From: Clostridia bacterium
Lineage (GTDB): Bacteria; Bacillota; Clostridia; HGM11327
Assembly: GCA_045627045.1 (NCBI GenBank)
Contig: JAZQMY010000024.1
Location: 18,408 to 82,407 of the forward strand
Reading direction: 5' to 3'
DNA: 64,000 nucleotides
The position numbers and the translations under genes were made by a program. Below the pieces are notes generated by a model. The model saw only the letters and a list, made by a program, of their open reading frames with translations, had not been told where the DNA came from and ran no database searches. The first letter of the stretch is position 1. The number at the start of each line of letters is the position of its first letter. Shown piece by piece: positions 6,357 through 57,468 of the stretch.

Positions 6357-9344
6357 TTATTCTGTTCTGAGTGCAACAACAGGATCCTTCTTAGCCGCAA
6401 GACGTGACGGAATGATTCCTGCAATCAATGTAAGCACCATGCTGATGAGTATGAGTGTCACAGCTCCCGAAACAGGAAGTGCTGCCCTGAGGTTTGTCAG
6501 GTCTGTCAGGAAAAGAAGGAGGGCATTGATAGGTAAGATCAAAATCAGCGTCACGCCTATACCTATTATTCCCGCAACAAAGCCGACAATGAGCGTTTCT
6601 GCATTGAATACTCTTGAAACATCGCGCTTTGAAGCACCGATACTGCGGAGAATACCGATTTCCTTTGTTCTCTCAAGCACAGAGATATAAGTTATGATAC
6701 CTATCATGATGGAAGATACCACAAGTGATATTGCAACGAAAGCGATCAGCACGTATGAGATAGCATTGATAATCGTTGTGATGGATGACATCAGAAGTGC
6801 AACATAGTCTGTGTATTCAATCTCATCGTCTTCATCCTCAACTGAAGCATTGTAAGCCTTGATGAGTTCTGAAACCTTGTCCTTGTTCTCAAACGTATCG
6901 CAATAGATGCTTATTGAGCTCGGAGCATCCTTTGAAATATAGCCGAGGATGTCAAGGTTATCATCATATGTGGACTCGGAGAATTCTCTCGGCATATATG
7001 AATCATAGAAGCCTGCAAAATCCTTCTCATCATACTCAGCCTTTGTAAACATCGTCTCAACCGAGTCTGCATCTGCCATCTGAAGCACAGCACCCATTTT
7101 TGCAGAATACTGCATTGTAACCTGTGCGGAAAGCACTGCCATTGCGATCTGTGCCTTGTACTGATCATCCATCGTATCGTAGTTTGCAAGGAGCTGTTCT
7201 TCAGTAAGAGTCGGATACTGTGAAAGGATCGCCTGGATAGTCATTTCCTTCAGCTGCTCCTCCGTGAACATTGCAAAGAGCTTTGCCGTCTCTTCCTCAA
7301 TATAGGATGCCTTAGGAACCATGAGAATCTCTTTATAAATTTTTGTTCTTTCCTCTGCGGAAAGCTGGCTGAAATATTCGGTTATCTTCTCTTTCTTTTC
7401 GGCGTCTGTTATTGAGCTCTCGTCATAATCCACAGGTTTGAAAGGAAGTCCCGTTATAACGTCTGTCTCCTTGTCTGCCATCTGCGCAAGGAGAAGCTCA
7501 TTTGTTGACGTCAGGTCAATTACCTTATCTGTGAGAGCGCTCGTATATGCAATATAGCCGGAAAGCATTGCTGATGATGCTTCTTCATTTGCCTTTATGA
7601 TACCTGATATTTTGAGCTGAATGCCGACTTCGTCCTTGCCGTAAAGCATTGCAAGTCCTGCATCTGTTTTCGTCATATCAGAATAAGTGTTGTCAAGCTG
7701 TTTTACAAAAAGTTCGCTTGAAAGGATAAGCTTGAACGAAGCCTCTTCGCCTTCTTGCCAGATTATTTCATCAAAATCCCACGGTCCGAATTCGGTTTCA
7801 ATCGGTTCCTTATTCGTCATGGCTTTGTAAATGCCCATAATCTGGTCTTTTGTAATAAGTCCGAGCGTATAGAGCACCATATCGCTGAGCTCGTTCTTTC
7901 TGTTTACAATGAGAACGACCTCATCATATGCATCAGGCCATTCACCTGCCACAAGATTATACTGTTCTTTAAGCAATGGGTTGACAAGCTCGCCGTCCTC
8001 GCCGGGAAGCATCTCTTCCCAGATTTTCAATGATGAGCTCATGCCCGAAAGGTAAGATGTTGACATTCCTGCAGAAGAATAGAGACTGTCAATAAGAGTC
8101 ATCGCATCGGATTTGATTATTTTGCCTTCAATATCCTTTGTAAATACGTTCATATCGTAATTATAAGCATACTGAATTGATGTAGTGTATTTTTTGAACT
8201 CTTCGCTGTTCTCAATATACTTTCTGAACGCGGTAAGATTGTTCTTCTGTGTCTCCGTATTCATGAAGGAATTCATCATATCGTACATAACAGAGTTCAG
8301 ATAAACCTTATCTTCATCTCTTTCAATCGGTGTCTCATCCGGATCCTCATTCTCTGACTTTACGCCCATAAATGATGCCATGATCTGTGACAAATCAAGT
8401 GTTTCAGCCTGAATCGTGATAGGATAACTTGAAAGCGTATCTCTCTGAACGTCATTTATGAAGTTCTGAACACCGTTTGACACTGAAAGAATGAGTGCAA
8501 TACCTATAATACCTATGCTTCCCGCAAAAGCCGTAAGAATCGTTCTTGCTTTCTTCGTCATAAGGTTGTTTATACTGAGAGAAAGCGCCGTAAAGAATGA
8601 CATTCCTACCTTGGGAGTACGTCTGCCGCTCTTCTTCTCCTGCTTGGGCGCATCTGTTTTCTCGCTTGTGTAAGGCATTGAATCGCTCTGCACCTCGCCG
8701 TCAAGGAGATTAATTATTCTTGTTGAATATTCCTTTGCAAGCTCCGGGTTATGAGTTACCATGATTACAAGTCTTTCGCTTGCAACCTCCTTGAGTATCT
8801 CCATAATCTGAACGCTCGTTTCCGAATCGAGTGCGCCGGTAGGCTCATCTGCAAGAAGGATCTCCGGATTGTTGACGAGAGCTCTTGCAATCGCAACTCT
8901 CTGCATCTGACCGCCTGACATCTGATTCGGCTTTTTGTTCAGCTGATCGCCGAGGCCGACCTTTTCAAGTGCCTCCTTTGCTCTTTTCCTGCGCTCCGCC
9001 TTTGATACTCCCGTTAGAGTAAGTGCAAGCTCAACGTTTGAAAGAACAGTCTGATGAGGGATAAGGTTATAGTTCTGAAAAACAAAGCCTATCGAATGAT
9101 TTCTGTAAGAATCCCAGTCGGAATCCCCGAATTCCTTTGTTGACTTGCCGTTGATGATCAAATCGCCGCTTGTATATCTGTCAAGTCCGCCTACAATATT
9201 GAGAAGAGTTGTTTTTCCGCAGCCTGACGGTCCGAGGATAGACACGAACTCGCTCTTTCTGAATTCGATGTTTATGCCCTTCAACGCATGGACAGCGGTA
9301 TCTCCTGCCTGATAGTCCTTGATAATATTTCTTAATTCAAGCAT
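6357..9344 (-). CDS. fused ABC transporter ATP-binding protein / FtsX-family permease (MacB-like)
   Basis: 995 aa. The N-terminus has Walker A (GPSGCGKTT), the ABC signature (LSGGQMQRVAIARAL) and Walker B (ILLADEPTGALD). The large C-terminal part is TM-helix rich with an FtsX-like terminal region. Confidence 0.85.
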   Translation of the reverse strand: MLELRNIIKDYQAGDTAVHALKGINIEFRKSEFVSILGPSGCGKTTLLNIVGGLDRYTSGDLIINGKSTKEFGDSDWDSYRNHSIGFVFQNYNLIPHQTVLSNVELALTLTGVSKAERRKRAKEALEKVGLGDQLNKKPNQMSGGQMQRVAIARALVNNPEILLADEPTGALDSETSVQIMEILKEVASERLVIMVTHNPELAKEYSTRIINLLDGEVQSDSMPYTSEKTDAPKQEKKSGRRTPKVGMSFFTALSLSINNLMTKKARTILTAFAGSIGIIGIALILSVSNGVQNFINDVQRDTLSSYPITIQAETLDLSQIMASFMGVKSENEDPDETPIERDEDKVYLNSVMYDMMNSFMNTETQKNNLTAFRKYIENSEEFKKYTTSIQYAYNYDMNVFTKDIEGKIIKSDAMTLIDSLYSSAGMSTSYLSGMSSSLKIWEEMLPGEDGELVNPLLKEQYNLVAGEWPDAYDEVVLIVNRKNELSDMVLYTLGLITKDQIMGIYKAMTNKEPIETEFGPWDFDEIIWQEGEEASFKLILSSELFVKQLDNTYSDMTKTDAGLAMLYGKDEVGIQLKISGIIKANEEASSAMLSGYIAYTSALTDKVIDLTSTNELLLAQMADKETDVITGLPFKPVDYDESSITDAEKKEKITEYFSQLSAEERTKIYKEILMVPKASYIEEETAKLFAMFTEEQLKEMTIQAILSQYPTLTEEQLLANYDTMDDQYKAQIAMAVLSAQVTMQYSAKMGAVLQMADADSVETMFTKAEYDEKDFAGFYDSYMPREFSESTYDDNLDILGYISKDAPSSISIYCDTFENKDKVSELIKAYNASVEDEDDEIEYTDYVALLMSSITTIINAISYVLIAFVAISLVVSSIMIGIITYISVLERTKEIGILRSIGASKRDVSRVFNAETLIVGFVAGIIGIGVTLILILPINALLLFLTDLTNLRAALPVSGAVTLILISMVLTLIAGIIPSRLAAKKDPVVALRTE

Positions 9345-50383: not shown

Positions 50384-51589
50384 TCACATTTTATTTTCTT
50401 TTTTTGCCTGAACCGAGCGGATGTATTTTGTCCACCTGATATAGCCGTATGTTGTATTCGTAAGATATCCTATCTTCAGCACGAGCAGAACATACTGTCC
50501 CGAAAGGATGTTTATCACTGCCTCGCCGATCGAATTAAGATACCATGCTATCCACTGTTCTCTGTATCTGAAAAGAATAAACAAGCCGTTTGCAATGCCT
50601 ACCGCAGATACGCAGGAATCAATATAGCAAATCAGGTTGGCAAGAGATCTGTTTCCGCCGAAAAGATCAGTTGCAATGTCAAGCTGTGAAAGGAAATATC
50701 CCACCACCACCGTCCAGACCACGATTCCCGCAATAACAAGCACTGCACCAATTCCCGAAAGCTTTCTTACTACCGTCAGTTCCTCTTCGTCCTTGTCGGG
50801 ATGCTTGTGCCAGTTGAAGAAGCTTATTATATCAACAGGCAGCCAGAAGAAGAGAGTTGTTGCCATTGTTGCGAATCTGTAAGCAAGCAATACGCAGATG
50901 AGTATCTCCGCCAACTCAACAAATATGGACACTATAAAGTTCCATTTGCTCTGCTTTGATATCAGCAATTCGCAAAGGATGTTAAGGAACGTATCCAAAA
51001 GATACAATACCATTATCCACAAACCGTTTATTCCGTTCATATCCTCTTCGGGGAAAATGACGGATACGACCGATGCCGCAGCAAGTATCGAAATAAACCA
51101 GATTTTCTCGTATGTAGTGAAGAATCCTGCAAAAAAGGTTATTACCGCAAGTCCGACCGCAACAAGCAGAAGAGCAACTGCTACACCGAACAGTGAATTC
51201 TGTTCTTCAGCAAATAAATTTTTTGCGCCGGATAGTATTTCGGCTTCGTCCGGTTCATGGTCAAATGCGATATATTCCGATTCATTTATCTCATAAACCC
51301 AGCCCTCTACCGTCTCGTCTTCGGCAAGCTCTTCCCACTCTTCGTAGGAATAATCAACGTACATCGTATAATCTTCTGACTCGAATTCCACACGACATAT
51401 CGTTTCGTTTTCATGGTCTTCCTCCGGATCATACACCCTTTCAAACGTATACTTTCCGGTGAAGTTATATGTCACGGCTTTATTTACCGCAACTGTTCCC
51501 ATCGCAAACAATACAACCGATGCGATGATAAGAATAGCCATGACAACAATTTCACTGTAAAATAATTTTCCTTTTTTCATTCCGATCAA
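50384..51589 (-). CDS. membrane protein with a C-terminal PnuC-like (nicotinamide riboside transporter family) domain and a highly acidic N-terminal extracytoplasmic extension
   Basis: 401 aa. One N-terminal TM helix, then a region of about 110 aa rich in D and E, then about 7 TM helices with PnuC-like W/N-rich loops. The family assignment is tentative. Confidence 0.45.
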   Translation of the reverse strand: MIGMKKGKLFYSEIVVMAILIIASVVLFAMGTVAVNKAVTYNFTGKYTFERVYDPEEDHENETICRVEFESEDYTMYVDYSYEEWEELAEDETVEGWVYEINESEYIAFDHEPDEAEILSGAKNLFAEEQNSLFGVAVALLLVAVGLAVITFFAGFFTTYEKIWFISILAAASVVSVIFPEEDMNGINGLWIMVLYLLDTFLNILCELLISKQSKWNFIVSIFVELAEILICVLLAYRFATMATTLFFWLPVDIISFFNWHKHPDKDEEELTVVRKLSGIGAVLVIAGIVVWTVVVGYFLSQLDIATDLFGGNRSLANLICYIDSCVSAVGIANGLFILFRYREQWIAWYLNSIGEAVINILSGQYVLLVLKIGYLTNTTYGYIRWTKYIRSVQAKKENKM

Positions 51590-52893
51590 TCAAGCTTTAC
51601 AAGCCCCTCCTCGTACATTGTCTGCAAACTCATAAGGATACCCAGCTTTGCTGACGGCCACGTGAGACCGCCCTGGAAATAAATCGCATATGGCTCACGG
51701 ATCGGACCATCTGCGCTGAGCTCTATTGATGAGCCCTGAACAAATGCTCCTGCCGCCATGATAACATCCGAATCATAGCCCGGCATTGCATACGGTTCAG
51801 GCGTTACGTAGCTGTCAACAGGTGCAGCCTTCTGAATGCCCTTGCAGAATGCGATCATTCTTTCTCTTGATCCGAGCTCAACTGACTGGATTATATCATA
51901 TCTTTCTTCTTTTCCGTTCGGAACAACATTGAATCCGAGCTTTTCATATATGTTTGCCGCAAGTATTGCGCCCTTGAGTGCGCTTGCAACAACAGTAGGA
52001 GCAATAAAGAAGCCCTGATAAAGTGCCGTCATAACGCTGAGGCTTGCGCCGACCTCCTGACCGAGTCCCGGTGCAGAAAGACGGTATGCACATCTGTCAA
52101 TATACTTTTTCTTTCCCACAATGTAGCCGCCTATAGGTGCAAGACCGCCGCCGGGGTTCTTGATGAGTGAGCCAACAGTCATATCTGCGCCTACATCAGA
52201 CGGCTCAACTCTGTCAACGAATTCACCGTAGCAGTTATCGACCATGACGCAGATATCAGGCTTGATGCTCTTTACAAAGCTTATCAGCTCGCCTATCTGC
52301 TTTACAGAGTATGTCGGGCGCATCTGATAGCCCTTTGAGCGCTGAATCGTTACAAGCTTTGTTTTCTCATTGATTGCTTTTCTGATATTTTCATAATCAA
52401 ACGTTCCGTCCGGCAAAAGGTCGACCTGCCTGTATGATACGCCGTACTCTTTTAGTGAGCAGACAGATTCTCTTATACCTATGACCTCCTCAAGAGTATC
52501 ATAGGGCTTGCCTGCCGGGGAGAGAAGCTCGTCTCCCGGAAGAAGGTTTGCAGACAGTGCTATTGTCAGGGCATGAGTGCCGCAGGTGATCTGCGGGCGG
52601 ACAAGTGCCGCCTCCGTGTGGAAGCATGACGCATATACCTCCTCGAGAGTATCCCTTCCTATATCGTTATAGCCGTATCCGGTCGTTCCTGCAAAGCAAA
52701 CCGCATTCACTCTGTTCTTCTGCATTGCATCTATTACTTTAAGCTGATTGTATTCAGCAGTTTCATCTATCCTGTCGAATCTTTCCTCAAGCCCCTTCAG
52801 AATTTCTTCGGCGAAATTCAATACCTTTTCGGAAACACCGAGATTTGCATACATTTCATTAATTTTACTGTTATTTGCTTTCATTATCTTCAT
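51586..52893 (-). CDS. methionine gamma-lyase family / YnbB-like PLP-dependent protein (the so-called aluminium-resistance protein family)
   Basis: 435 aa. PLP fold (Cys/Met-metabolism family). The start is possibly the internal MYANLG (52856), which would remove the overlap with the upstream gene. Confidence 0.7.
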   Translation of the reverse strand: MKIMKANNSKINEMYANLGVSEKVLNFAEEILKGLEERFDRIDETAEYNQLKVIDAMQKNRVNAVCFAGTTGYGYNDIGRDTLEEVYASCFHTEAALVRPQITCGTHALTIALSANLLPGDELLSPAGKPYDTLEEVIGIRESVCSLKEYGVSYRQVDLLPDGTFDYENIRKAINEKTKLVTIQRSKGYQMRPTYSVKQIGELISFVKSIKPDICVMVDNCYGEFVDRVEPSDVGADMTVGSLIKNPGGGLAPIGGYIVGKKKYIDRCAYRLSAPGLGQEVGASLSVMTALYQGFFIAPTVVASALKGAILAANIYEKLGFNVVPNGKEERYDIIQSVELGSRERMIAFCKGIQKAAPVDSYVTPEPYAMPGYDSDVIMAAGAFVQGSSIELSADGPIREPYAIYFQGGLTWPSAKLGILMSLQTMYEEGLVKLD

Positions 52894-53125
52894 TCTCCCT
52901 TTCCTCGTACAGTATTTTCATTGCAACATTATTTATAACGTCAGGACGGGACACTATGATCCCCTTATCATCATTCCCGAGAACAAGCAGTGTGTCTCCC
53001 GGCTTTATGCCGAAAAGCTCCCTTGCTTCCTTTGGTATGACTATCTGCCCTTTTTCTCCGACCTTGACTGTACCGAAAATATGATTGCCCTTAGGCATTC
53101 CGAGCAAATGCTTTCCGTTTGCCAT
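52871..53125 (-). CDS. AbrB/MazE/SpoVT-family DNA-binding protein
   Basis: 84 aa. Swapped-hairpin beta-barrel motif (GTVKVGEKGQIVIPKEARELFGIKPGDTLLV). Acidic C-terminal tail. Confidence 0.7.
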   Translation of the reverse strand: MANGKHLLGMPKGNHIFGTVKVGEKGQIVIPKEARELFGIKPGDTLLVLGNDDKGIIVSRPDVINNVAMKILYEERENEDNESK

Positions 53126-53167
53126 ATTCCCTCCATAATATAGTTATACTTTTCCTACAAGTAGGAA

Positions 53168-53196
53168 TTATACCACAACAAGCTTCATTTGTCAAT
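53168..53196 (-). promoter_or_regulatory. sigma-A promoter (TTGACA, 17-nt spacer, TATAAT) of the AbrB-like gene, with the palindrome TTCCTACAAGTAGGAA (53153-53168) at its +1 region
   Basis: On the minus strand: TTGACAaatgaagcttgttgtggTATAATtcctacttgtaggaaaag...GGAGGgaatATG. Confidence 0.65.
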
Positions 53197-53198
53197 AT

Positions 53199-53228
53199 AA
53201 AAAAGAGGATGCACGATGGCATCCTCTC
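53199..53228 (-). terminator. rho-independent terminator of the lipoprotein gene
   Basis: On the minus strand the stem AGAGGATGC/GCATCCTCT is followed by TTTTTTAT. Confidence 0.65.
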
Positions 53229-53242
53229 CAAGATCCTGTTTA

Positions 53243-54083: not shown

Positions 54084-54653
54084 TTAATTATAAGCTTGGC
54101 TTAAATGATTTTTATCATAATTTGATAAATTTGTATTATTTGAATTTCCCTGTTTCATTACCCCATAATAGTTATCATCTACAATGTGACCATAATACCC
54201 TAAGGCATGACCAAATTCATGAAGCACGGTCTTTTGTTCCTGATTTTCATAGTAATTTTTCCAGCACGAGGTGCTACTAGACTGCACAATTTGTGCTCCA
54301 TCAGATGAGGAACTATTCTTAACGGCTAATTCCAAGCTCGGATTTGCAACCGATTTTATTCTGTAATACACTTGTCCATGGTCACGTTCTTTTTCAAAGC
54401 TCCATTTTTGGTAGTTGCTTCCAGTAAAATCATAAATATGTATCGACGCATTATTAGCATTCGAATTATTCTCCGGTGCAACACATTTACCATTTTTTGC
54501 ATTTACAATATAGTATTCTCCTTCAGGAATACTAATTGTCAATGCCTGTATTCCATCTGAGGAATACGCTGACGCCGAAGCAATACATAATAGTTGTAAA
54601 ATCATTACAATTACAATGCAAGCTACTAATTTTTTCTCATAGAAAAAATACAT
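54084..54653 (-). CDS. small secreted protein with a metzincin zinc-binding motif (HExxHxxGxxH), putative mini-metalloprotease, in an AT-rich segment
   Basis: 189 aa. N-terminal hydrophobic signal. The C-terminus reads TVLHEFGHALGYYGHIVDDNYYGVM (HEFGHALGYYGH plus a downstream Met). The local DNA is markedly AT-rich. Confidence 0.45.
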   Translation of the reverse strand: MYFFYEKKLVACIVIVMILQLLCIASASAYSSDGIQALTISIPEGEYYIVNAKNGKCVAPENNSNANNASIHIYDFTGSNYQKWSFEKERDHGQVYYRIKSVANPSLELAVKNSSSSDGAQIVQSSSTSCWKNYYENQEQKTVLHEFGHALGYYGHIVDDNYYGVMKQGNSNNTNLSNYDKNHLSQAYN

Positions 54654-54682
54654 CCTAACAACAAATATTGTGTTTCAATTAC

Positions 54683-54710
54683 ATTATACTGTTTTTTTTT
54701 ATTATGTCAA
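54683..54710 (-). promoter_or_regulatory. sigma-A-like promoter (TTGACA, 16-nt spacer, TATAAT) for the metzincin-motif gene
   Basis: On the minus strand: TTGACAtaataaaaaaaacagTATAAT. Confidence 0.4.
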
Positions 54711-54803
54711 TACCTTTTTAATTAAATTTTTAAAATTTTTTTATTTTTTGATATTTAATATAATGTTGTGCCGTGATTCAGCTTTAATCTGTTTTCCGTG
54801 GAC

Positions 54804-55133
54804 TTATCTTAGTTTCTGCCATATCTCGCAAATGATATCTGCGATTTTCAGTCTGACCTTGACTTTCACGTTTTTTGAAGAGAGTAGCTCCTTCGGTGTG
54901 AGGTCATCCGTTCCCGAATACATCTCTCTTGTGAAGCAGACCGGCGGAAGAATGAGCGCTTCTGCATTGTCTGCGGGTACGCAAAAACCCGGCTGTATCT
55001 CGGATACGGTCGGGTATATCGTTATAAGTATTGCAAGCACCGTCAGAATTACAACGGTTCTGATGTAGCATTTTCTGTTTTTCATCTGTGATCTTACCTT
55101 TCGTTCGTTGTACGAAAAGTATTGCCCGATCAC
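54804..55133 (-). CDS. small hypothetical secreted or membrane protein
   Basis: 109-aa ORF with a signal-like TVVILTVLAILITI segment. It overlaps the upstream GGDEF-like gene by 4 nt (ATGA), which is the main support for it being real. Confidence 0.35.
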   Translation of the reverse strand: MIGQYFSYNERKVRSQMKNRKCYIRTVVILTVLAILITIYPTVSEIQPGFCVPADNAEALILPPVCFTREMYSGTDDLTPKELLSSKNVKVKVRLKIADIICEIWQKLR

Positions 55134-56197
55134 TTCTCTTTTATTCCGTCCCCGGCAATAAAATCAACAACTTTTCCTCTGTTCAGGAGCTTCATGGTAT
55201 CCACCGTCACCATATCCTCCTTGAGAGAATGCTCAATATCGTTGACGAGGATTTTCAGTGAAATATCCGCAAGCTCCGGTTCGTTGTACTTGAGTGCCTC
55301 AAAGTTGCTGTAAACTACTCTTGCTATTCCTTCGGCATTAACGACGTCTTTGTTGAAGAGCAGCACAGCAATGCAGTCTTCCTCGTATCTTGCAATGAAA
55401 TCGTTGCTCTTTACCTGCTCGGAAATGAGATCGTTTATTCTCTTTACAAGGATGTGCTCCGTTGAGTAGCTGTACTTGACTCTGTACTGATAAAGATTGT
55501 CTATGTACACCATCATTACGCCCATATTGAAGCTCGGCTCTCTTGTCTTCTTGAGACCGCTTCGGAGCATTTCCTCAAAATAATATCTGTTCGGGATCTG
55601 AGTAACATAGTCCGTTCTTATCATTTCGTTTTCCTTGCGGTTATCGCCTACAAACGGAGTGTCACTGTACTTCTGAAGCTCTTCGATGATCGTTTTGTTT
55701 ATTCTTACCTTTTCCGAAAGCTCACGATTTCTTGAATCTATTGCAAGAACATCATTCTTGATGAGGCAAACTATGCACGAAGGCAGAACAACCAGAAGCA
55801 GCTGTATGCCAATATCGAATGCTTCCGTTGCGCCATTCACGGAATAGCTTACCATCACAAATACAGAAGCTATTGCGAACGAAAGCAATACAAAGTATAC
55901 AGGGAAAAGGATTGCACATCTGAGAAGTGTGAACAAAGTCAGCGGAAGGAAAGCCTTGTCTGTAACAAATATCGAGATACATATTACAAAAGCCATATCC
56001 GCAAATTCAAGCACATAATTGAACGGTGCACTGTACGGCTGACGAAGCATAAACGGCTTCAATATCAGGAATAGTATATAAAGCACTGCAATATAAAATC
56101 CTGCCTGCTGGAACACACTTCCTTCAATGTAGAATGCAAGATATGCCACTATGGCAAGAATATTCAATAATCTTACGGCGGTTTCACGTTTCGTCAT
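55130..56197 (-). CDS. integral-membrane protein with a degenerate GGDEF domain (predicted inactive cyclase, EEDCI in place of GGDEF)
   Basis: 355 aa. About 5 N-terminal TM helices. The C-terminal domain aligns with GGDEF (DYVTQIPNRYYFEEM = D.LTGL.NR..F; MVYIDNLYQY...RINDLI; FIARYEEDCIAVLL versus LVARLGGDEFAVLL). The I-site RxxD is replaced by KSND. Confidence 0.7.
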   Translation of the reverse strand: MTKRETAVRLLNILAIVAYLAFYIEGSVFQQAGFYIAVLYILFLILKPFMLRQPYSAPFNYVLEFADMAFVICISIFVTDKAFLPLTLFTLLRCAILFPVYFVLLSFAIASVFVMVSYSVNGATEAFDIGIQLLLVVLPSCIVCLIKNDVLAIDSRNRELSEKVRINKTIIEELQKYSDTPFVGDNRKENEMIRTDYVTQIPNRYYFEEMLRSGLKKTREPSFNMGVMMVYIDNLYQYRVKYSYSTEHILVKRINDLISEQVKSNDFIARYEEDCIAVLLFNKDVVNAEGIARVVYSNFEALKYNEPELADISLKILVNDIEHSLKEDMVTVDTMKLLNRGKVVDFIAGDGIKEK

Positions 56198-57135
56198 TTT
56201 TTATTCTCCGTGTCAGTATTGTTTATGTTTCTTTCGTAGAATACTCCGTCCGAGTATCCCTGTATTCTTTTTTCTTTATCTGCCGCAATGAGCCTCTTTT
56301 CGGCAAGACAGCAGTATTCCTTTTCACGCTCAATGCCCGTAAAGCATCTGTTCAGCTTCTTTGCGGTGACTACGAATGTGCCAGAGCCCATGAACGGATC
56401 AAGCACCGTGTCATTCTCGTTGCTGGATGCAAGGATCAGCTTTGCCGCAAGTTTTTCAGGTTTCTGGGTAGGGTGAGGCGTATTCTCCGGCATAGACCAG
56501 AACGGAACAGACACATCATCCCAAAGGTTTGACGGGTAAGTATCCCTGAATTTGCCCTTTTCCGTCTCGAGCCAGTCCTTCGGCGCTCCGTTTTCATCCT
56601 TGTATGGGGCAATCACACGTTTTCTCTGCATTACCCTCTCAGGCTCAAAGCAGAATTTATCCGACACAGTAGCATACCAGATGTCTTCACTAACATTCTT
56701 CCAGTTTGTTCTGCTGCCTCTGCCCTTTTCCCTCTGCCATGTTATACGGTTTCTCACCGAAAAGCATTCCGAAAGCACCTCTCCCACAATGATGCTTGTG
56801 CACCAGTCACAGCACACATAAATCGAGGCAGTCTCCTTGAGGGTATGCCTGAGCGCATTTAGCCATGAAAAAGTAAAATCTCTGTACTCTTCTGCCGAGG
56901 ATTTGCGAAAAACAGTCTCCCCGAAGGTTTTTGTCATGTTGTAAGGGGGATCGACTATCAGAAGATCAACAAAGCCATCGGGAAGCTTTCCTGCCGCATG
57001 GAACACATCATCATATATAACGATGTTTCTTGCCTCATCTTCCGAAATTGCTTTTTCTGGTGTGATGCAGTTTGCAAGCAGTGTATTCTCTTCACACGGT
57101 GAGACCGTGATGGTTTTATTTCTCTGCGAAGGCAC
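56194..57135 (-). CDS. beta-class DNA methyltransferase (N6-adenine or N4-cytosine type), with no restriction enzyme gene visible nearby
   Basis: 313 aa. Motif IV DPPY (LLIVDPPYN) precedes motif I (LDPFMGSGTF), giving the beta-class order. It overlaps the downstream GGDEF-like gene by 4 nt. Confidence 0.8.
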   Translation of the reverse strand: MPSQRNKTITVSPCEENTLLANCITPEKAISEDEARNIVIYDDVFHAAGKLPDGFVDLLIVDPPYNMTKTFGETVFRKSSAEEYRDFTFSWLNALRHTLKETASIYVCCDWCTSIIVGEVLSECFSVRNRITWQREKGRGSRTNWKNVSEDIWYATVSDKFCFEPERVMQRKRVIAPYKDENGAPKDWLETEKGKFRDTYPSNLWDDVSVPFWSMPENTPHPTQKPEKLAAKLILASSNENDTVLDPFMGSGTFVVTAKKLNRCFTGIEREKEYCCLAEKRLIAADKEKRIQGYSDGVFYERNINNTDTENKK

Positions 57136-57409
57136 TTCGATTCCTCTTTCCTGATAACAGATAAGTTTACTTATATAATATTATACTTCAAAGATGGGAA
57201 AATTTCAATAGGAAACAGAAGAATATTTGTGAGTGATCTGTTTTTTGGCCGCTGCCAGAACCCGCAAGGGATTGCATCCCTTGACCCGAAATCTGTTTCG
57301 CAGCGCTTCAAGTGAAAAAGAAGCAAAAAAGAAAATCTCCGAGGCTACCACAGCCAAGGTGATTTTCTTGAGTTGCACCATTATTTTTTGTTTTGCTTTT
57401 GATGGAGGT

Positions 57410-57446
57410 GTGGGGGAAGGATTTTCTCAGAAAATCCTTCCCCCAC
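57410..57446. other. perfect 16-bp stem / 5-nt loop hairpin between ftsH and the methyltransferase gene
   Basis: GTGGGGGAAGGATTTT-ctcag-AAAATCCTTCCCCCAC. It has no adjacent U-tract on either strand. Confidence 0.5.
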
Positions 57447-57468
57447 AAAAACTCCGCTTTCCCAAAAA

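Follow-up and report, generated by a model that had tools for sequence, protein, structure and literature searches.

The window analysed here is a 64,000-nucleotide stretch of a Clostridia bacterium genome (GTDB lineage HGM11327; assembly GCA_045627045.1, contig JAZQMY010000024.1, positions 18,408 to 82,407). Next to ftsH, on its minus strand, are a gene for a DNA methyltransferase (MTase), a gene for a membrane protein with a GGDEF-like domain, and a small gene, which a first-pass annotation took for a horizontally acquired islet and possibly a novel defence or epigenetic-signalling module. The locus is an operon fusion, not a defence island. We think it reasonably probable that the gene for an ordinary orphan N6-methyladenine (m6A) MTase came under the promoter of a gene for a sporulation-linked membrane protein, in a fusion specific to one lineage. 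The small gene appears to be a shortened spoIIR (mini-SpoIIR), an origin that the first-pass annotation missed.

Organization of the operon

The three genes are co-oriented minus-strand open reading frames (ORFs) in the ORF table of the window, located as first annotated. The features of the operon are as follows.

57313 to 57369, minus strand: hairpin and T-run, likely the ftsH terminator (arms 57352-57369 and 57329-57346; inverted-repeat search, T-run read in the sequence)
57180 to 57208, minus strand: putative sigma-A-type promoter, TTGAAATTT-N14-GTATAATAT, matching 11 of 12 consensus positions
56194 to 57135, minus strand: solitary beta-class DNA MTase, 313 amino acids, GTG start (PF01555 and motif order)
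56194 to 56197, minus strand: ATGA stop/start overlap of the MTase and GGDEF-like genes, with GGAG 10 nucleotides 5' of the ATG (read in the sequence)
55130 to 56197, minus strand: membrane protein with a GGDEF domain predicted to be dead, 355 amino acids (Pfam, AlphaFold)
55117 to 55146, minus strand: forespore-type (sigma-F/G-like) promoter-like element, GAATA-N18-AATACTT, overlapping the 3' end of the GGDEF-like gene
54804 to 55085, minus strand: predicted mini-SpoIIR, 93 amino acids (homologue alignment, profile comparison)

The hairpin and T-run at 57313-57369 would likely insulate the operon from ftsH. Two ATGA overlaps had been read in this chain of genes. The one at 56194-56197 stands, but 55130-55133 reads GTGA and would need an unlikely GTG start at 55133, the start of the longest ORF. 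That start was dropped, since the N-termini of 18 homologues align from an MK(x)K/R sequence corresponding to the ATG at 55085, which has an AAAGG ribosome-binding site. The small gene therefore encodes 93 amino acids, begins 44 nucleotides 3' of the GGDEF-like stop codon and lacks translational coupling.

The operon is compositionally native and forms no compositional island. G+C content at third codon positions (GC3) is 0.52 in the MTase gene, 0.49 in the GGDEF-like gene and 0.52 in the small gene, against 0.46-0.49 in flanking core genes and 0.47-0.49 in the ftsH, tilS, ynbB and lipoprotein genes. A repeat search around the operon gave no convincing flanking repeats or mobile-element boundaries, and there are no mobile-element genes at the operon. 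Horizontal acquisition of the operon, as first proposed, is not borne out.

Distribution and origin of the linkage

Among the 16 lineages examined, tblastn searches and gene tables split the GGDEF-like family into clades A, B and C. All three genes are present in the seven lineages of clade A (the window, L001-3, L008, L009, L119, L120 and the P0004/P0313 contig), whose GGDEF-like proteins are 58-67% identical to that of the window; a cluster-member look-up places a clade A MTase on the P0004 contig as well. Clade B (about 60% identity; L004/5, L010, L011, L012 and L121) has only the GGDEF-like and mini-SpoIIR genes at the locus, and no MTase is found there in clade C (L006/7, L014 and L094) or at L013. 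The pairing is seen in seven lineages of one subclade and so is not unique to this genome. The GGDEF-like gene nevertheless stands without a linked MTase in 9 of the 16 lineages, a distribution that counts against the proposed module. Where the two genes are joined, their 4-nucleotide overlap is kept at all five related loci examined (L001, L008, L009, L119 and L120).

In clade A the TTGAAATTT-N14-GTATAATAT promoter lies 5' of the MTase gene, and in clades B and C it lies 5' of the GGDEF-like gene; the extended motif is found at L001, L008, L004, L010, L011, L012 and L006. It was not found upstream of four solitary MTases. Loci with and without the MTase also have neighbours in common: a divergent gene for a fused ABC-type ATPase and FtsX permease (ABC-FtsX) is present at L120, which has the MTase, and at L121 and L004, which do not, and the DUF711/ACT neighbours of clade B recur at L008 of clade A. 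The MTase gene would therefore have been added in place.

In a neighbour-joining tree of 122 family members, the clade A MTases fall into one group of 13, and the identities between pairs of them parallel those between the GGDEF-like proteins. The flanking neighbours vary, with ftsH in the window, lon at L001, azlCD at L119 and ABC-FtsX at L120. Restriction of the linkage to one subclade is consistent with a single origin, and we consider that it probably arose once. The simplest history would be one insertion of the MTase ORF between the promoter and the start codon of the GGDEF-like gene, followed by vertical co-descent through rearrangements of the flanks.

A solitary beta-class MTase

The MTase matches the full profile of PF01555 (N6_N4_Mtase; positions 1-221, E = 5e-43, 148 bits against a cut-off of 26.7), with DPPY (residue 62) ahead of FMGSG (residue 248). 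This is the beta-class motif order, as first annotated. The DPPY motif and the adenine MTases among its best matches suggest that it is probably of the N6-adenine type. The reported absence of a restriction partner also holds, as no nuclease, specificity subunit or second MTase is present among its neighbours in the window (ftsH, hpt, tilS, and the lectin, lipoprotein, AbrB-family and ynbB genes).

The MTase family is large, with more than 8000 matches at E < 1e-30, hundreds of them at 57-65% identity. All four members sampled on long contigs are solitary and lie between housekeeping genes without a nuclease, and no endonuclease gene or pseudogene is found at these four loci or at the seven clade A loci whose context was sampled. 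A tblastn search of phages with the MTase returns a single unannotated faecal contig at 55% identity and otherwise matches at 33% or less, and the family appears not to be typically phage-borne. A PADLOC scan of six proteins gives only generic MTase models, the best of which are Type II MTases (E = 3e-60). We regard the window MTase as a conserved solitary member of a large Clostridia-centred family. One further match (P0019; 417 amino acids, 518 bits, with no BLAST identity reported), on a 166-kb contig, may be an N-/C-terminally extended or fused version of the clade A MTase.

The closest solved structure is M.BceJIV (8URK, E = 4e-30), followed by CcrM and MboIIA. M.BceJIV of Burkholderia, CcrM and YhdJ share with the window MTase the PF01555 fold, DPPY before FxGxG, a length of about 280-360 amino acids and the lack of a restriction partner; M.BceJIV is an orphan regulator with the target GTWWAC. 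The window MTase is, however, only about 30-35% identical to these three enzymes, and does not reach the NCBIfam equivalog cut-offs for CcrM (105 against 830 bits) or YhdJ (PRK11524, 120 against 292 bits). CamA of Clostridioides difficile is a considerably longer m6A MTase with an additional DNA-binding domain, and no CamA chain is present among the PDB sequence matches of the window MTase at E ≤ 1e-5. It resembles the window MTase in being solitary, in its occurrence in a spore-forming clostridial lineage, and in being linked in the genome to genes of sporulation and of GGDEF-domain proteins (10.1101/398891).

A membrane protein with a degenerate GGDEF domain

The GGDEF-like protein matches the Pfam GGDEF profile (E = 4e-13, 49.8 bits against a cut-off of 23.8) at positions 3-111 of 161 only. 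The active site, RYGGDEF, is changed to RYEEDCI, so that EEDCI stands in place of GGDEF. Arg239 and His248, both invariant in the family, take the places of the Asn and Asp that bind guanine, and the domain is predicted to be catalytically dead. The I-site position, RxxD five residues before that of GGDEF, reads KSND, with K, N and D invariant in the family. Binding of cyclic di-GMP (c-di-GMP) is uncertain because the I-site Arg is lost, having been replaced by Lys. As a second option, the first-pass annotation had offered an orphan regulatory MTase co-expressed with a c-di-GMP receptor-like protein; an orphan MTase putatively co-expressed with a non-catalytic GGDEF protein is the part that is supported, and the receptor role is uncertain. 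An Rfam scan of 52.5-60 kb at E ≤ 1 gives no c-di-GMP or other riboswitch.

An AlphaFold model of the protein (mean predicted local distance difference test score, pLDDT, 76.8) has six membrane helices, where five had been annotated, then a long connecting helix and a GGDEF fold. Its top Foldseek matches are the membrane cyclase ImcA and GcbC, with template modelling (TM) scores of up to 0.75 against the GGDEF domains of GcbC and WspR. The membrane domain alone matches no family in a Pfam scan, and a distant relative gives a borderline 6TM_PilS match (26.7 against 27 bits).

The family is small: it makes up 17 clusters (90% identity) in a set of 5.8 billion proteins and two (50% identity) in a set of 1.84 billion. 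All of its members are from uncultured Clostridia of the gut or rumen. A metagenome scan for further loci yielded one additional true member only. RYGGDEF or RYGGEEF is still present in more distant relatives whose full-length architecture is the same, and one of these (P0140) matches Pfam GGDEF at E = 3e-43; the GGDEF-like family is therefore taken to be a dead derivative of membrane diguanylate cyclases. The many replaced yet invariant positions suggest a new binding surface rather than decay. Five charged or polar residues (K47, N60, E64, D67 and R93; residues 47-93, window 55919-56059) are invariant within predicted membrane helices of the family, which hints at a ligand or ion site in the membrane domain.

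GdpS of staphylococci and YdaK of B. subtilis, both degenerate-GGDEF membrane proteins, similarly have a multi-helix membrane anchor and a GGDEF fold without cyclase activity, acting as a signalling or receptor module. The window protein differs from both in the KSND at its I-site, the absence of a Pfam family for its membrane domain and its lineage-specific synteny with spoIIR, and it scores 22.7 bits against the GdpS model, for which the cut-off is 400.

A putative mini-SpoIIR gene

The small gene occupies the position of spoIIR, whose product is the forespore signal for pro-sigma-E processing by SpoIIGA. At L013, where the GGDEF-like protein is 48% identical to that of the window, the gene directly downstream encodes a full SpoIIR of 184 amino acids (PF09551, E = 9.5e-44). 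The small protein of the window has a hydrophobic helix at its N-terminus, a PPxC motif and, at its C-terminus, a basic amphipathic helix, KVKVRfKi. With hhalign, the mini family aligns to residues 137-183 of the L013 SpoIIR, its last ~47 (probability 89.5%, E = 2e-6), through FPPxC, a variable acidic linker and K-I/V-K-V/I-R-F-K-I. In a multiple alignment the N-terminal hydrophobic segment is common to both, but the ~110-residue core of SpoIIR, which is most of PF09551, is gone from the mini proteins, and six of these match neither PF09551 nor any other Pfam family even at E ≤ 10.

A profile of nine mini proteins run against 5.8 billion sequences retrieves about 22 more short proteins and one true SpoIIR fragment (PF09551, E = 4e-3), whose tail, FPPLCFVDE...VEVKFKIVEIL, matches the mini family as judged by eye. 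The AlphaFold model of mini-SpoIIR (pLDDT 59) has no confident globular fold, and a PDB sequence search with SpoIIR found no solved relative. These comparisons identify the small gene as a predicted truncated derivative of spoIIR.

A promoter-like element, G(A/T)ATA-N17/18-(C/A)ATACTT, is located at -50 to -68 at 6 of 11 loci, against 0.21 expected in shuffles. The small gene keeps this element, which is also present 5' of the genuine spoIIR of L013, and the spoIIR of L122 keeps a -10-like motif only. It resembles the forespore sigma-F/G consensus. A terminator hairpin separates the GGDEF-like gene from the small gene or spoIIR in clade B and at L013.

P0140, which is 19% identical to the window protein and has an intact GGDEF motif, is encoded at L122 directly upstream of a full spoIIR, which is followed by sleB, ypeB and a gene for a small acid-soluble spore protein (SASP). 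A six-helix GGDEF gene is directly 5' of spoIIR in two cases with the full-length gene and nine with the mini gene, and the pairing is therefore old, given that a full spoIIR also lies beside the distant P0140 gene. Most likely the GGDEF-like protein has no enzymatic activity and serves at the membrane in signalling or as a scaffold, in connection with the SpoIIR step of sporulation. The wider sporulation cluster at L122 (1-9433) encompasses veg, sipL, ispE, a nucleotidyltransferase gene, the gene for the six-helix active GGDEF protein, spoIIR, sleB, ypeB and the SASP gene, and suggests that a membrane diguanylate cyclase may be a regular neighbour of spoIIR in some Clostridia.

Origin of the operon and alternative explanations

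In the account that we favour, the older unit would be the GGDEF-like/spoIIR gene pair of a narrow group of uncultured spore-formers among the Clostridia of gut and rumen. The GGDEF-like gene would be transcribed from the conserved sigma-A-type promoter, and the second gene, spoIIR, would in most members have been cut to a mini-SpoIIR of about 90 amino acids with its own forespore-type promoter. In the ancestor of the subclade, a member of the widespread solitary beta-class MTase family would have been placed between the promoter and the GGDEF-like start codon, and the two genes would since have been co-transcribed and translationally coupled through the ATGA overlap. The MTase most likely acts like its solitary relatives, methylating a specific motif genome-wide without a restriction partner. 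We propose that the linkage persists because the GGDEF-like gene now depends on this promoter and on translational coupling, and we infer that the link between the two genes is a matter of expression rather than of shared biochemical function.

Several points weigh against capture behind a promoter. Seven lineages, with ~35% divergence between their proteins and at least five different neighbourhoods, retain the overlap of the two genes, and selection for joint function, not dependence on the promoter, could explain such long retention. The similarity of the promoters could in part be convergence on a strong consensus, and the sigma-factor assignments are only pattern matches to consensus sequences from the literature. 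The link to SpoIIR with a full-length gene comes from two loci only.

A possible but rather unlikely alternative is that the MTase and the GGDEF-like protein are functionally coupled in the control of sporulation, the MTase having been recruited, for joint production, into the operon of a membrane signalling protein of the SpoIIR pathway and its m6A mark regulating sporulation genes in the manner of CamA. It agrees with the maintenance of the operon and of its 4-nucleotide overlap across the seven clade A lineages despite their rearranged flanks, the co-varying divergences of the two proteins, the linkage of the partner genes to spoIIR, and the presence of sporulation genes nearby in relatives (SpoVT at L120, BofA and YtxC at L121). 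CamA provides a precedent, in that this orphan MTase promotes sporulation, a camA mutant under-expresses spoIIR, and camA is two genes from GGDEF-domain genes (10.1101/398891; PMC13395437). However, because the linkage has a single origin, its conservation across clade A amounts to one event. In sister clades the GGDEF-like and mini-SpoIIR genes persist with no MTase beside them, relatives of the MTase occur in unrelated housekeeping contexts, the promoter in common is of the vegetative sigma-A type, and the MTase is not a CamA orthologue.

We are more doubtful of a broader proposal, that the six-helix GGDEF protein forms an ancient and so far unrecognised partner pair with SpoIIR, full-length or mini, in clostridial forespore-to-mother-cell signalling, into which the MTase of this subclade has been wired as an epigenetic layer on sigma-E activation; here mini-SpoIIR may be the only SpoIIR of these spore-formers. 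It is quite improbable that the locus is what remains of a Type II restriction-modification system whose endonuclease was lost, leaving the MTase beside unrelated genes. The best PADLOC models and the lack of a cognate endonuclease nearby would fit such a remnant, but the MTase is solitary in all sampled contexts (four unrelated and seven clade A loci), with no endonuclease gene or pseudogene, and conservation at 57-65% identity across hundreds of clusters is more in keeping with an orphan of long standing than with recent decay.

We give hardly any credence to a novel anti-phage defence or epigenetic-sensing module, in which methylation would be read or enforced by a membrane cyclase-palm effector: all that speaks for it is an MTase beside a palm-fold protein without an annotated partner, and against it PADLOC gives no match for the GGDEF-like, small, lipoprotein and AbrB-family proteins (the lectin only at E = 0.0056), there is no nuclease or other effector at the locus, the palm domain has lost its residues for nucleotide binding and catalysis, composition is native with neither repeats nor mobile-element genes, the GGDEF-like gene is older at the locus than the MTase and tied to spoIIR, and the MTase family is solitary elsewhere.

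Lectin gene and other features of the window

A lectin gene downstream of the small gene has its own promoter and is a transcription unit separate from the MTase operon.

54683 to 54710, minus strand: perfect TTGACA-16-TATAAT promoter of the lectin gene (promoter scan)
54084 to 54653, minus strand: AT-rich ORF for a predicted secreted ricin-type lectin, 189 amino acids, with a HEFGHALGYYGH tail (PF14200, E = 1e-14)

The AT-rich segment that had been assigned to 54.1-55.2 kb is real, but lies at 54.0-54.8 kb and consists of this ORF (GC 0.335, GC3 0.274) and the 150-nucleotide spacer at 54654-54803 (GC 0.22). The lectin ORF is absent from all of the related loci compared; it may therefore have been acquired recently, or be a mosaic. 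Its product has about two beta-trefoil repeats of the ricin type and then a HEFGHALGYYGH...YGVM tail, which resembles the zinc site and Met-turn of a small metzincin; the N-terminal protease half is absent.

A perfect 19-bp palindrome with a 1-nucleotide loop (57409-57447) lies directly past the ftsH stop codon and has no T-run on either strand, and the weaker hairpin and T-run at 57313-57369 is more likely the real ftsH terminator. A micro-RNA match from Rfam (RF03642, E = 0.0098) falls on this palindrome hairpin and was rejected as spurious. A search of the window for further copies of the ftsH-MTase spacer element found a single copy only.

An AbrB/MazE-family gene (52871-53229, minus strand; 84 amino acids) overlaps the start of ynbB by 23 nucleotides, with a perfect extended promoter at 53195-53167 and a strong terminator before it at 53229-53202. 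At L120 the mini-SpoIIR gene is followed by a gene for full SpoVT, which has an AbrB-type N-domain. The 401-amino-acid protein encoded at 50384-51589 (minus strand) has a PnuC transporter domain only at residues ~195-390; its N-terminal ~190 residues contain one membrane helix and an acidic domain and match no family. A fused ABC-ATPase/FtsX-permease gene (995 amino acids) is located at 6357-9344 on the minus strand, and its apparent counterpart (991-993 amino acids, with the same ABC_tran/FtsX architecture) adjoins the GGDEF-like gene divergently at L004, L120 and L121. The operon here would therefore have moved ~47 kb from an older neighbour.

Significance

For the defence candidate this is a negative result: the MTase is an ordinary representative of a large family of solitary enzymes, and a single gene-order event accounts for its link to the membrane protein. 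The locus would cleanly illustrate how an orphan MTase gene can come under the promoter of another gene and then stay there over a long period. The pairing of GGDEF and spoIIR genes and the existence of mini-SpoIIR are new observations, modestly novel: a membrane GGDEF protein is encoded directly 5' of spoIIR in two very distant clostridial lineages, and in one lineage SpoIIR appears to have been reduced to an N-terminal helix and a C-terminal tail and is still conserved. Because the mechanism of SpoIIR signalling is still debated (PMC13174948), a natural minimal SpoIIR and its conserved neighbour protein would be useful leads, and mini-SpoIIR, should it prove to be the sole SpoIIR of these organisms, would define the minimal signalling part of SpoIIR.

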